From: Octopus sinensis
Lineage: Eukaryota
Direction of reading: 5' to 3'
Assembly (NCBI RefSeq): GCF_006345805.1
Contig: NC_043007.1
Location: 5,890,001 to 5,954,000, forward strand
DNA length: 64,000 nucleotides
Shown here one piece after another: positions 7,997-59,430 of this stretch. Numbering within the stretch: position 1 is the stretch's first letter; each line of letters opens with the position of its first letter. The notes below the pieces were generated by a model, which was not told where the DNA came from, searched no databases, and saw nothing but the letters and a program-made list of their open reading frames with translations. The position numbers and the translations under genes are program-made.

Positions 7997-8289
7997 CTTA
8001 CAAACCCCCTTCTCCGGTGGGTGGAGTCAGTCACTTTCAGTTCTTGCTGTATCCACAACCACGCAATGCTATCACGTTAGCCCCTAAGCTGGCATCAACT
8101 CGACGAATTGATATGGTTACCTTTGAAAGAGAGAACAATATAAAGCATACAATGAGCTTTCAATACACCATTTCTCTACCAGGATCACCTACTGCAGAAG
8201 AAGCATCAACAGCTTCTGATCTGATCAACCAGAGAATTAGTTCTTTATTTATTTTAATTTTAACATATTTTGCCCAGTTACTATACTAA
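7997..8289 (+). CDS. PEBP4-like gene copy 0, terminal exon 4
   Basis: Polypyrimidine tract and caacag| acceptor. It encodes [21 protein letters not shown], matching the PEBP Y-x-x-P-x-P...HRYxFxxY-x-Q motif, and ends in the hydrophobic [17 protein letters not shown]. Confidence 0.9.
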
Positions 8290-9689
8290 TTAATTTAGAG
8301 AAGAGTATAATATATATATATATATATATATATATATATATATATATATATATATATATATATATATATATATATATATATATATATATATATATATATA
8401 TATATATATACATATAATATATATACATACATACATACATATATATGGCGTATCGTCAGATCCCGGCCGACAGGTTTTTGGGATCCTGCAATACGCCATA
8501 ATGTTAAGCCCTTTATAGACGAGAAACCTAAGGTAATCCCATAAACGGGCCTTCCCCATTTTTAATATGTACTGCTCTAAATCCTGGAGTGTCCTTCTAC
8601 TTTCGGATTAATATGTTTAACAAACGATAAATATATATACGTATATATATATATATATATATATATATATATATAGATAAACAATAAATCGTTATATCTT
8701 CTTTTCAATGTTTCCATTTTCATTCCGTGTTTTCTTTTCACCCGAACAAGTAAAGTGTGTGTAGGCAATGTGTTCTGTTGTTATATATTCTTATATTGCA
8801 CTCTCTCCTAGTCCTTCTTTCTCTATACTGAGTCCTGCGCTCCTTTACGTATTTCTCTGCATTTTTTTTCCTTCATTCATTTTCATTTACAAATCCTTTT
8901 ATTCCAGAGATAATTTATTAACTGTCAGAACTACGATGGGGTCTGATGTCAGAACTGTAACGCGGGGTGTTGACAGAATCGTTAGCAGCCCCCGGATAAA
9001 AATCATTTAGCAGCATATTCTCTGTTGTACGTTCTGAGTTCAAACACCACCGAGGCCGAGTTTTCCTTTAATTCTTTCAGTGGGGAGGAAGAGTAACTTC
9101 TAGTTGAGCACTGGAACTGATGTGATCGACTACATTCGCTTCCCCATAATTTCGGGTCTTCTGCCTTATAGTAAAATGCATTATTATTATTGCATGCTGG
9201 CAGAATCGTGAGCGTACCGAACAAAATGAATGACGGCATTTCGTCCGTCTGTTCCTTCTGGGTGTCCACAGAGGTTGAAATTATCTTTTATCTTCTTAGT
9301 GTATTATATATGCGTGTTTGTCTATATGTCTTTATGTAGATATGTATGTAAGCACGTATATATATAAAAATACACATGCACACACCTTCACGTAAGCAAA
9401 TTTGAAACATTGATGCGTCATAATCAAACATAAATACAACCACGCGCACACCTAGACACATGCTCACTTATAGAAGCACACGTATAAAGAACGGATGTGT
9501 TAGAAACAAGGAGAGAAAGATCACGTCAAACAGAAGTCTAGTGGTGACAATTTTGAAGATAAATCAAAGTATATTTATTAAAATAAATACGGAAATATTT
9601 GCATCTAAACTGCAAATAATCTTTTCGTCAATATCTCCAAAGACAACGATTATAACATCTTCAGTGCTGTAACTCCACTGACAGAAATA

Positions 9690-9884
9690 ATGTTCTTCTG
9701 GAATGTTTTCCGAGGGAAGATCCTACTGCTTTCTTGCATGGTCTTTCACAGTTTGGCATACAATGCGAATGAGAACTTATGTGCCAGACCACAGCTGGTT
9801 ATTCTTCCTAAGGAAATATACAAAAAATGTGACGTCGTCCTTAAGAAAGAAGATGTAAAGAAACCGCCAACAGTGAAAGTTCCG
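9690..9884 (+). CDS. PEBP4-like gene copy A, exon 1 (signal peptide plus Cys pair)
   Basis: Encodes MFFWNVFRGKILLLSCMVFHSLA-YNANENLCARPQLVILPKEIYKKCDVVLKKEDVKKPPTVKVP, followed by a |gtaggt donor in phase 0. It resembles the PEBP4 N-terminus as recalled from memory (C..LEVFYPE..GC..PIVKFP). Confidence 0.88.
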
Positions 9885-56200: not shown

Positions 56201-59200
56201 TTTCCACTGCTCCGGAGTAGCACCTTTGTTAAGATAGAAATGAAAGGAGAATGAAATCTGGTGAAGAAGAAAGTAACCACTACGTTAGAGAAGCAGGTAT
56301 ATAACACCATCAAGCCCAGGAGGGACATAAGTTGCACTTATTCCGAAGGAGACGTCGCAGCAATGCAGGTGTAAATTCCATAGTTGTTGTGGATTTTGTG
56401 CCAGACGTGGTGGAAATGGTAAGTTTTGGTTTTCAACCGTACAAATGCCTTCATAGCATTCAGCAATGAGTTTTGTGCATTCTTTGGGATCGTTAGTAGT
56501 CTGGCTTGTTTGTGCATTGTGAAGAGGACCAACAATTGAGTGAGGTCTCTGTTTTGAACGTACATATTTCCAGAACACCTTACTGTCAAGGTTGCCTGCT
56601 CCGCGCTGCTCAAATTCAAGCACTGCCTTTTTGTCACCTGCTTGAGATGATTGGATTATTTATTGCGCTTTTACCTATTTATATCTGATTTATGCAGTTT
56701 GTATTCCCCTTCAGCATTACGTCATTCTTTCCTGGCAAGTCTGACTGCTGAAGTCTTCCAAGTTGCACTTTTGGGATGTTTTTTGTGCTTACATGATACT
56801 GATGCTGCACATGCTGTCCATATTGAGTTCAAGATGTTCTGAAGTATAGTGCTCACATCTCCAGAGTCGTAAAATTCCAGCCATTTTGGCCTCTGTAGCT
56901 CGATGCATTAAGAGTTCCTGTCTACTTTATTCCAGTCGACGCGAGCATTTTGGAGATGGCTGTGGTTTTTGTTACTGCCCATCAGGGACAGATTGGCAAT
57001 GATCATAGCATGATCAGAGTCACCTAACGGTTCCTCAGTAGTAATACTAATAGCCATTTCAGGAGTAGCGATAAGGAGTAGACACAAAGTATTGTTACCT
57101 CCAGTTGGGGAGTTGACTAATTAGACCCAGTTCGAGTACAGCACTAGCTCAATGAAATCTTTTTCATTTCGCAGCTAATGAAAGATATCCCAATCAATCT
57201 CAGGGTAATTTAAGTCACCTGCAATAAAACGTAAGTGGCTGTTTTCCTGGCGGCAGTTCTCATAATATTAAAAAGTTGTGTGTCCCGATGGTAACTTGGT
57301 GGAGAGGTAAACAACTCCAAGTAGAAGTGCTGACGTGGTCAAACGTAAAAATACTTCTCGTGATTGGTTCAAATCAATGCAAGGAATTACTGAAAAGTTT
57401 GAACGAGCATAGACCATCACATCGGCACCACAACGATGAATGCGGTCTTTGCGAAATAGGTTGTAGCCAGCAATGCTGAACCCCGCTTCACACAGTTAGG
57501 CATGCGTCCATATTTCTTTGATTGTAATGAAATCGGGGTCGATACCTTTGGCGTAAGACTCAAAAAGATGTACTTTGTTGCACAAATTATGAGCATTTAA
57601 GGACAACAGTTTGTACCTTAATTTCAGTTTACTACGATGTGAAGGGAATGGCGGGTCGTTCCGATTTTTTCCCGACAGTCTTTTCATTGCCAACAGTGGT
57701 CACAGTGTGTTCACACCATCTCGTATCTCTTCCCTATGTTTCACCGGCCTTAATATACAACCCATGGTCGTGTACGCTGAAGTTTTCATGTTGTGCTAAG
57801 TTGATATTTAAGGAAGCCACATCACGTAGCTTTGGATGTACATCAGGTGGTAGGCTATAGCGTATTCTAAAGGTAATCCTATTTTCACGCCTAAATTTAT
57901 CAGAAGCTAAAAGGTATGAAAATGCCTCAGAAGAGTTTGAAAAAGACAGCCCGATTAGTCTGAGTTTTGGACATGATCGACCAAAGCGGAGAGCACCCTT
58001 CGGGGAACACAGCCTAGGTTTTTGAATGAGCTGGTAGCAACTGCCAGAAGGTTAGCTATATCATCTCGTACCCCAATGACAATTACTTCATTGCTGACCG
58101 ACACGCCAGAATGGATATCTTCTTCAACCTAACAGAAAGGATATGTAGCATTAGTTTCTTATGCAAGTACCAGGGACACACGCCTATCTGAATTAAATGA
58201 TACACTCATCACTAGAAACTACCCACCTTCACTAATTGACATATGCTTTCAACGTGCCCTTCAACTCAACATCCAGGAACTCAGACATCCCAAATTTAAG
58301 AAGGATTTACAACCAAAAGCCCTACCATACATCTTCTCACACACAACTCTCTTAACAATGAAGCCTTCAACACCATCTTTCAAAACCCCACCTTGCTAAA
58401 AAGGGACCACAAAATGAACTTAATCCTCCAAACACAGCATCATAAAAAGCAAGAGACAGCCCAAACGTATGAAATGTCTCCTAACACAAGCCCGAAAACA
58501 CTCAACAACACTGAAGCCGTCAGTAAAAAAATGCCGACAATCTAACTGTAGGATATGCGTCAATTTAATTGAGGGATCAGAGTTCTCCTTCAAACAGGGA
58601 CGTTTCATAGTGAACATAGAAGAGTAGTGTTTTGCCAGCGTGCCTTCCCATCGAAGACGACGTATGAGTATTCAGGTTCTGGCGAGCGACCGGAACAAAT
58701 GATTTGTTTATAGAGATAAGAAATTTCTGTGCCATGCATTTACTCAAATCGATGTTGTCTGAATAGGGTCACAGTGTGCCACGTGGCAGGTGTCGAAGTG
58801 ATCGCAGTGTAACGTGAGGTGAAATATTCTCCTCAAGAACAAAACGCTCCACTACATCTAGCACGTGAAATCAGGATTGGTAAATCTTCTGAGCAACATC
58901 TTAACCATACATACACACTCAATAACACTATAAAATGGTCGAAATCTTTCCACAAGAACTTAGTTCAATTTGAAAACCCCACCAAAATGGACGAAAGCGC
59001 TAATATGTATGATATATGATATAAGTTATATGATGTATAAATCATATAATATACAAATAAATATCTGTAAATACAAAACCATCCGAATTTCTGGGTACCT
59101 CGTTTCTTCTAAAATACCTGTACATCATCTCCAAACCTTCTAATATATATATATATATACATATATATATATTTAAAACATTACGTTATATAATTATTTA

Positions 59201-59322
59201 TGATATATATATATATATATATATGCGCATGCCAAATTCCTAATATGTTCACGTGTGTGTATGTATGATTTAATATAATAAATTCCTCCTAATGTAAAAA
59301 AAAAACTTTTGTGTTTTATTAG

Positions 59323-59430
59323 CTAAATGCAAGTCTGAACGAAACATTATATATACTGGGCATGTTTCATCAAGAGGCATATAAGGAAGCTAATATAGTT
59401 TACACGCATTGGATGAGGACATTTATCGGG
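59323..59430 (+). CDS. PEBP4-like gene copy C, exon 2 (exons 3-4 lie beyond the window)
   Basis: ttattag|LNASLNETLYILGMFHQEAYKEANIVYTHWMRTFIG|gtaagt. Confidence 0.88.

Follow-up and report, generated by a model that had tools for sequence, protein, structure and literature searches.

A tandem array of rapidly diverging PEBP-type genes in Octopus sinensis, three of which share a derived pocket

Organisation of the locus

Nine tandem four-exon genes of the phosphatidylethanolamine-binding protein (PEBP) type were found over 210 kb of the 2.72-Gb genome of Octopus sinensis, part of this array lying in a 64,000-nucleotide stretch (G000:C11:5890001-5954000; NC_043007.1), here called the window, around which 264 kb was read. 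The genes follow one another as c1, c2, c3, copy 0, A, B and C on the + strand and c8 and c9 on the - strand, and self-comparison of the window established a tandem unit of 17-25 kb with an intron-intron identity of 92-98%. Genome searches added three paralogues, one on C9 (89.34 Mb) and two on C8 (41.41-41.51 Mb, here C8a and C8b), so that pocket and motif states were counted for 12 family paralogues of this genome; a further exon-1-like match is present at C8:41451305. Relatives are present in O. vulgaris, O. bimaculoides and Argonauta, and the relative searches turned up no squid or cuttlefish member, a result that is weak as evidence of absence.

The hydrophobic N-terminus and a Cys pair come from exon 1 (195 nt), and an N-glycan sequon, the DPD motif and HW from exon 2 (108 nt). 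Exon 4 contains the GxHR motif and completes the domain; it also encodes a spacer and the hydrophobic terminus, beyond which there is no cytoplasmic tail. Exon 3, of just 49-52 nt, had been overlooked in a sequence-only reading of the window and was located via the shortest intron. The protein plan is a predicted signal peptide, the Cys pair, a PEBP-like domain and a tail resembling a glycosylphosphatidylinositol (GPI) anchor signal. Hydropathy of the N-terminal 11-mer is 2.05-2.49 in all nine copies and that of the C-terminal 11-mer 1.95-2.85 in eight of the nine, where it is preceded by an ASD small-residue run. The sequon at Asn67 is present in all seven domain-intact copies and in neither of the two pseudogenes, a loss that B and c2 may have in common through exchange. 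The encoded proteins are probably located at the cell surface or secreted. The exons in and next to the window are as follows, in window positions:

1755..1806, + strand: copy 0 exon 3 (52 nt); the window begins after its exons 1-2, of which exon 2 has the motif HPEAY
7997..8289, + strand: copy 0 exon 4; GVSHF at 8023, spacer, hydrophobic GPI-like tail
9690..9884, + strand: copy A exon 1; predicted signal peptide, Cys31, Cys47; spliced to exon 2 in contigs
17682..17789, + strand: copy A exon 2; sequon Asn67, DPDAY at 17727, HW
28866..28914, + strand: copy A exon 3 (49 nt); read into by loose contig ends
31097..31368, + strand: copy A exon 4; GHNRY at 31123, hydrophobic tail
32721..32914, + strand: copy B exon 1, broken; stops at 32886-32888 and 32906-32908
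41083..41190, + strand: copy B exon 2, pseudogene; VPDKY at 41128, sequon lost
45810..45858, + strand: copy B exon 3; GAG acceptor
48120..48406, + strand: copy B exon 4; GLNHF at 48146
50060..50254, + strand: copy C exon 1; spliced contigs
59323..59430, + strand: copy C exon 2; HQEAY at 59368
64826-64877 (window-equivalent, past the window end): copy C exon 3
66778-67064 (window-equivalent, past the window end; G000:C11:5956778-5957064): copy C exon 4, GLNHF

The six motif strings within the window from which the sequence-only reading started were confirmed in frame on the + strand at the positions listed, and each of the exons that carry them is bounded by GT-AG. Six of the nine copies are fully intact (c3, 0, A, C, c8 and c9), among them copy 0 with 215, A with 207 and C with 213 amino acids. 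Copy c1 (G000:C11:5836085-5836360, upstream of the window) keeps the five pocket residues described below and its frame shifts just before the hydrophobic tail; it may represent a soluble form or an assembly error. The two pseudogenes are c2, with a stop in exon 4, and B, in which a 1-bp deletion leads to a stop at codon 56 and is accompanied by a second stop in the original frame and by a GAG exon-3 acceptor, all eight other copies having CAG. VPDKY and the GLNHF of B, which had been taken as variant proteins, thus both come from a pseudogene, and the motifs of B are uninformative.

A homologue word search with exon 4 alone gave none of 13 candidates as a relative, and one with exon 1 recovered only the chimeric models P0001 and P0002; records of the whole protein were found for none of A, C, c3 and copy 0. 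The public models P0001, P0002 and P0004 are chimeras in which exons of neighbouring copies are joined or the reading continues into an intron, so that the array is mis-annotated in two Octopus species. Two repeat proteins, P0005 and P0007, were discarded as chance matches.

Transcription

None of the sequencing runs used (coded X1, X2, X3, X4 and X7) is recorded as RNA, and RNA status accordingly rests on exon-exon junctions in their contigs. A 456-nt contig from X3 is free of differences from exon 2 of A and from the covered 217 nt of its exon 4, which it joins through a stretch of exactly 49 nt, and contigs with 0 differences to A exon 2 were found in X3, X4 and, in part, X1. Contigs in X3, X4 and X1 carry exon junctions of C and c3, and it was established that A, C and c3 are spliced. 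Depth in X3 is mostly in the thousands across the coding part of exon 4 and 0-50 across the intron, a measure which in contigs is unsuited to ranking genes. B-type exon-2 letters were found in one of four runs (X2), where they look genomic, the contigs running through introns. No B-, c2- or copy-0-type exon-2 contig was present in X3, X4 or X1, and X7 had no exon-4 cover, which does not amount to evidence of silence.

Family membership and fold

Four of the seven relatives pass the 24-bit cut-off of the PEBP profile PF01161 (P0009 60.4, P0006 38.9, P0011 33.0 and P0008 24.4), while the array orthologue P0003 (20) and single exons of c1, c8 and c9 (11.8-19.6) score below it. The four relatives above the cut-off can be aligned with the array copies over their whole length, and the family profile matches 25 solved sequences, all of the PEBP family (best E 2.5e-9). 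Argonauta P0009 aligns to Arabidopsis FT with DPD, HW and GIHR in register and the array copies in turn align to P0009, which bears out the earlier assignment of the variable strings to the PEBP motif positions. Judged by these alignments, the array genes are PEBP homologues by descent.

The assertion that the fold has been kept was upheld in part by models of two relatives. The model of paralogue P0011 (predicted local distance difference test score 74.6) has 12 PEBP-fold chains as its first-ranking matches (FT: Z 13.9, root-mean-square deviation 3.0, 148 residues) and the Atlas places it among PEBPs at 0.93. For P0003, the c9 orthologue of O. vulgaris without its exon 1, the top matches are likewise of the PEBP fold and fall below significance (best E 2.5e-3, TM about 0.5, none at or below 0.001). 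The five-residue definition of the canonical pocket fails for c3, 0 and C, and the final Pro of DPDxP is missing from all 12 paralogues; c3, 0 and C are consequently not classed as RKIP/FT-type anion binders.

Pocket residues

Five residues are near-invariant in PEBPs, D71, H87 and H118 of FT on the rim of the cavity, and D73 and R119 in a salt bridge (PMC8793217, in part), and the DPDxP and GxHR motifs together with the Asp-Arg bridge make up the pocket (PMC10848944, in part). Within the array only c1 and c8 retain all five (DDHHR); four of five are found in c2 (GDHHR) and A (DDHNR), the latter keeping the Asp-Arg pair, three in c9 (NDLHR), two in B (VDHNH) and a single one in c3 and C (HEHNH) and in copy 0 (HEHSH). 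Among the paralogues elsewhere in the genome C8b, which is tail-less, has the intact five, while C8a reads DDHRR and C9 SDHYR. Two Argonauta proteins also have the full set, and as the one that groups with the array (support 98/98, on a long branch) reads DDHHR, the intact set is taken to be ancestral.

Copies c3, 0 and C have one derived pocket in common, in which D-D-H-H-R has become H-E-H-(N/S)-H. Both salt-bridge partners are replaced, and the Tyr after GxHR has become Phe, mostly through single-base changes; the three copies, although just 68-74% alike, agree in H, E, H and in the His that takes the place of Arg, and the codon of that last His differs synonymously. In numbering that we take to be human-style, the swaps are Asp70 to His, Asp72 to Glu, Arg119 to His and Tyr120 to Phe (FT D71, D73, H118 and R119 being the reference positions). 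HPEAY of copy 0 and GLNHF of C both lie outside the window, and with them included copy 0 and C carry the fully rewritten pocket. The variety of motifs across copies, read earlier as a rewriting of A, B and C each in its own way, amounts to fewer than three distinct pockets, B being a pseudogene, A keeping four of the five residues and c3, 0 and C sharing one derived state.

The extent to which these changes are confined to the pocket was determined with 46 deep-conserved sites, at which conservation extends from the outer copies to three or more of five deep relatives. Among them, c3, 0 and C have changed at four of five pocket sites as compared to three of 41 others (Fisher p=0.001), one of these three being the Tyr adjoining GxHR. 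The proposal that the changing residues are PEBP pocket residues is sustained. Taken with the within-array rate test given below, this points to a pocket rewritten on a kept scaffold, probably once, and not to a recurrent hot spot. The companion statement on the scaffold holds for A, B, C and copy 0, in which Cys31/Cys47, HW, PPS and LLYPQ are all kept, and is looser across the nine copies (HW 8/9, PPS 5/9, LLYPQ 6/9, Cys47 9/9, with the first Cys at 31 in seven and at 30 in two). HW itself was misplaced among scaffold residues, its His being a residue of the pocket rim that is kept in every window copy (PMC8793217, in part).

Part of the DPDxP change is old. The final Pro is absent from all 12 paralogues and from the five other octopod proteins and is present in a mite control. 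Compared with FT, 11 of the 12 paralogues lack three residues in the loop that precedes HW, which in C8a is longer, and it follows from both changes that CR1 was remodelled before the array arose. The C-terminal helix, which contributes to the site in RKIP (bioRxiv 10.1101/2023.08.23.554426, in part), has no counterpart in the array proteins, where spacer and tail come after the last strand. Canonical RKIP itself is described as binding phosphatidylethanolamine poorly in solution (PMC2864760, in part), so that a loss of phosphate-head binding has a weak baseline. With Arg and one Asp gone, occupancy of the cavity is likely to have changed at the H-E-H-(N/S)-H site, which is also a possible metal site, and canonical anion binding has probably been lost or altered in c3, 0 and C.

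Divergence, selection and exon exchange

Across ten pairs of the five inner copies the p-distances of exons 1-4 were 0.118, 0.162, 0.263 and 0.125, as compared to 0.037, 0.046, 0.026 and 0.048 for their flanks, so that exons are 3-10 times as divergent as flanks (12-26% versus 3-5%); the signal peptide has zero differences among c3, 0, A and B. In the mature region nonsynonymous divergence (dN) exceeds synonymous divergence (dS) in 32 of 36 pairs. Codon models were applied to the seven copies without a break in the domain, leaving out the pseudogenes B and c2, with one tree per exon because the exon trees disagree. The mature domain has an omega of 1.86 (p=4e-5 against omega=1), and model M2a, in which 62% of sites have an omega of 2.8, is preferred to M1a (p=4e-8); selection is also found in the inner four copies (p=9e-4) and the outer three (p=2e-5). 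About 11% of sites are invariant. Positive selection on the mature domain is thus highly probable. At 0.09-0.22, mature dS is higher than the divergence of introns, suggesting either homogenisation of introns with survival of distinct exons or an inflation of dS by multi-base changes.

Posteriors above 0.95 were obtained for 18 sites; the exon-3 loop has three of these, the loop that follows LYPQ has four, and two more directly precede GxHR. The pocket motifs were considered as selection hot spots and rejected as such, since motif sites are not faster than the rest (Mann-Whitney p=0.20) and the fastest sites are loops. The loop after LYPQ, in which B and C are four residues short, aligns with the FT stretch following GIHR, presumably the external loop, segment B. 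That segment is functionally important in FT (PMC8122565, in part).

The inner copies are 61-74% identical to each other (A versus C 61%), and orthologues on other chromosomes are, at 79-86% between O. sinensis and O. bimaculoides, closer than A is to C; c9 and its O. vulgaris orthologue share 98% identity across 103 sites. Exon 4 of B and C differs at one of 185 nt while their exons 2 and 3 differ by 23-33%, a pattern that suggests a recent exchange tract. An exon-1 segment after Cys47 is common to the otherwise distant copies c2, c8, c3 and C, and c2 groups there with the inverted c8 (support 1.0).

Discussion

The array may be regarded as a product of birth-and-death evolution, its PEBP-derived octopod proteins being predicted as secreted glycoproteins with a GPI tether, and the His-rich pocket of c3, 0 and C would no longer hold anions in the manner of PEBP1. 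On this account an octopod ancestor would have gained the signal peptide and Cys pair, the DPDxP Pro would have been lost and the loop behind it shortened by three residues, and in place of the C-terminal PEBP helix the protein would have acquired a spacer and hydrophobic tail. Tandem copying with exon-level exchange would have followed, then a change of His118 to Asn in the inner clade, then the swaps of c3, 0 and C at both Asp, the Arg and the Tyr, with the Asp-Arg salt-bridge partners changing together, and selection would continue in the loops around the pocket face. As to what drives this divergence, our tentative explanation, which we put forward as plausible without holding it to be established, is that the array encodes what are predicted to be variable surface binders, engaged in an arms race with external molecules, most likely those of microbes, parasites or prey. 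This explanation is built on the conserved signal, the hypervariable loops, exon exchange, the pseudogenes and a divergence that is found among paralogues and not between species (the near-identical c9 orthologue). That the partner is a foreign molecule, as opposed to an odorant or gamete protein, can be advanced with about the same reserve. It is a good deal more doubtful that the array is a GPI-anchored recognition repertoire of octopods whose youngest branch has acquired a new His-rich site for a metal, a new ligand or a new catalysis.

The most direct alternative is that the pocket is dispensable, partners being bound by the loops only and the motif swaps being passengers of protein-wide change, as in mL38, which uses the fold as a scaffold only. 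It would accord with the position of the top selected sites in loops (A112/114/116, 125/128 and 140/142/144/146), none of the motif sites exceeding 0.95, with motif variability at background level in the inner four copies, and with the different decay of c9 (N-D-L-H-R) and the different states again of the C9 and C8a paralogues. We nevertheless consider it unlikely, as c3, 0 and C keep deep scaffold sites while changing pocket sites, as polar residues were introduced in a reciprocal manner (Asp-Arg to Glu-His), and as copies so dissimilar overall, with unlike codons for the last His, have the same four residues. A role as chemosensory ligand carriers in sucker or olfactory epithelium, akin to an insect antennal PEBP and with each copy tuned to other small molecules, would suit a tandem array with altered pockets and has a parallel in a secreted fruit-fly PEBP predicted to be an odorant-binding protein (PMC8793217, in part), but a domain-wide omega near 1.9, the positive class taking in about 60% of sites, exceeds what tuning of one small pocket would need, and this role appears distinctly improbable.

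A GPI-like tail, a conserved signal peptide and rapid evolution, all found here, are typical of gamete-recognition proteins. The array might on these grounds encode reproductive surface proteins of sperm, spermatophore or oviduct under sexual selection, and PEBP4 is listed among sperm proteins; since divergence occurs among the paralogues of one genome and the c9 orthologue hardly differs in O. vulgaris, the between-species pattern expected is lacking, and the chance of this explanation is rated slightly lower still. Relaxed constraint, by which a decaying redundant array loses its motifs neutrally, would explain why two of nine copies are pseudogenes with a third frameshifted before the tail, and why no B or copy 0 transcript contig was seen. 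It is already largely refuted by exons several times more divergent than their flanks, an omega significantly above 1, the invariant sites and the intact, spliced state of the rewritten copies C and c3, and we regard it as very improbable.

Several points weigh against the reading of the array as PEBP-derived surface binders under selection with a rewritten pocket. When window exons were scanned singly, none of seven matched PF01161, and the GPI assignment is a hydropathy call to which a short transmembrane tail is an alternative. The codon models were custom-written, use empirical posteriors and do not account for multi-nucleotide changes, and disagreement among exon trees biases such tests even with per-exon trees. 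No pocket motif site is among the 18 highest-posterior sites; in the inner four copies six of nine motif sites are variable as compared to 65 of 140 others (p=0.31), and without the depth filter the pocket contrast for c3, 0 and C is four of five versus 41 of 116 (p=0.06). The shared pocket of these three copies is moreover probably a single event, and may have been spread by gene conversion.

As compared to the PEBP/RKIP/FT/YbhB family (PF01161; human PEBP1/RKIP, Arabidopsis FT), the array is alike in fold, as modelled for P0011, and in the order DPD-HW-GxHR. It differs from RKIP and FT in the added signal peptide, Cys pair, sequon and GPI-like tail, in the absence of the final DPDxP Pro and the C-terminal helix, in the shortened loop before HW, in the single canonical pocket residue of c3, 0 and C, and in being under positive and not purifying selection. 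Secreted animal PEBPs, namely mammalian PEBP4, a putative odorant-binding PEBP of the fruit fly and one from the gall-wasp venom gland (PMC8793217, in part), similarly have an extracellular PEBP domain behind a signal peptide, and no description of such proteins as a positively selected tandem array with an anchor-like tail and a rewritten pocket was found in the literature searched. In the accessible text of PMC8793217 multiple replacements among the five residues are reported for two groups only, mL38/MrpL35 and plant PYBHB. The array resembles these in that the PEBP fold is probably kept and signature residues are replaced, with a derived function implied; while they are old, stable lineages, it holds versions with five, four and one of the five residues among young paralogues, the flanks of the inner clade being about 4% different.

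Rapidly evolving secreted arrays, such as conotoxin-like, immune and gamete-surface families, combine a conserved signal with a hypervariable mature region, exons more divergent than introns, pseudogenes and exon exchange. The octopus array appears to have the same pattern, built on a PEBP fold. Nothing relevant was found in the literature on PEBP in octopus, cephalopods or molluscs, or under the locus identifiers, subscription papers and supplements being outside that search.

If the more doubtful reading, of a recognition repertoire with a new His-rich site, is correct, the array would represent a third PEBP group leaving the universal pocket, with ancestral, intermediate and derived states side by side in one array. 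Whether the conserved PEBP cavity is a ligand site or a catalytic centre is described as still open (PMC8793217, in part), and the array provides natural variants with 5, 4, 3 and 1 of the five residues on close backbones, at least three of them spliced, so that the role of the pocket is testable by direct comparison. It also brings to light an octopod gene family, apparently under strong positive selection, for which only partial or chimeric models were found in databases, and which could have a role in defence at the surface of the octopus or in its chemical recognition.

Other features of the window and chromosome

An AT-rich insert in intron 2 of A (window 18476-19800), present in copy A only and with about 21% GC in its 2-kb bin, looked mitochondrial, yet has no long code-5 frame and no Rfam match; it is a dispersed repeat (1845 candidates, of which 40 were scored, most of them 85-92% identical). 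An element resembling a long interspersed nuclear element, with long open reading frame pieces on the - strand, is present at window 2028-5874 (copy 0 intron 3) and 19967-23813 (A intron 2), the two being 97.6% identical. A TACA-type microsatellite of 2.4 kb (window 26300-28730) lies just upstream of A exon 3 and is much longer than that of B. Elsewhere on the same chromosome a separate PEBP exon (G000:C11:30126681-30126950) has DPDIP, with PHFY replacing GxHR.

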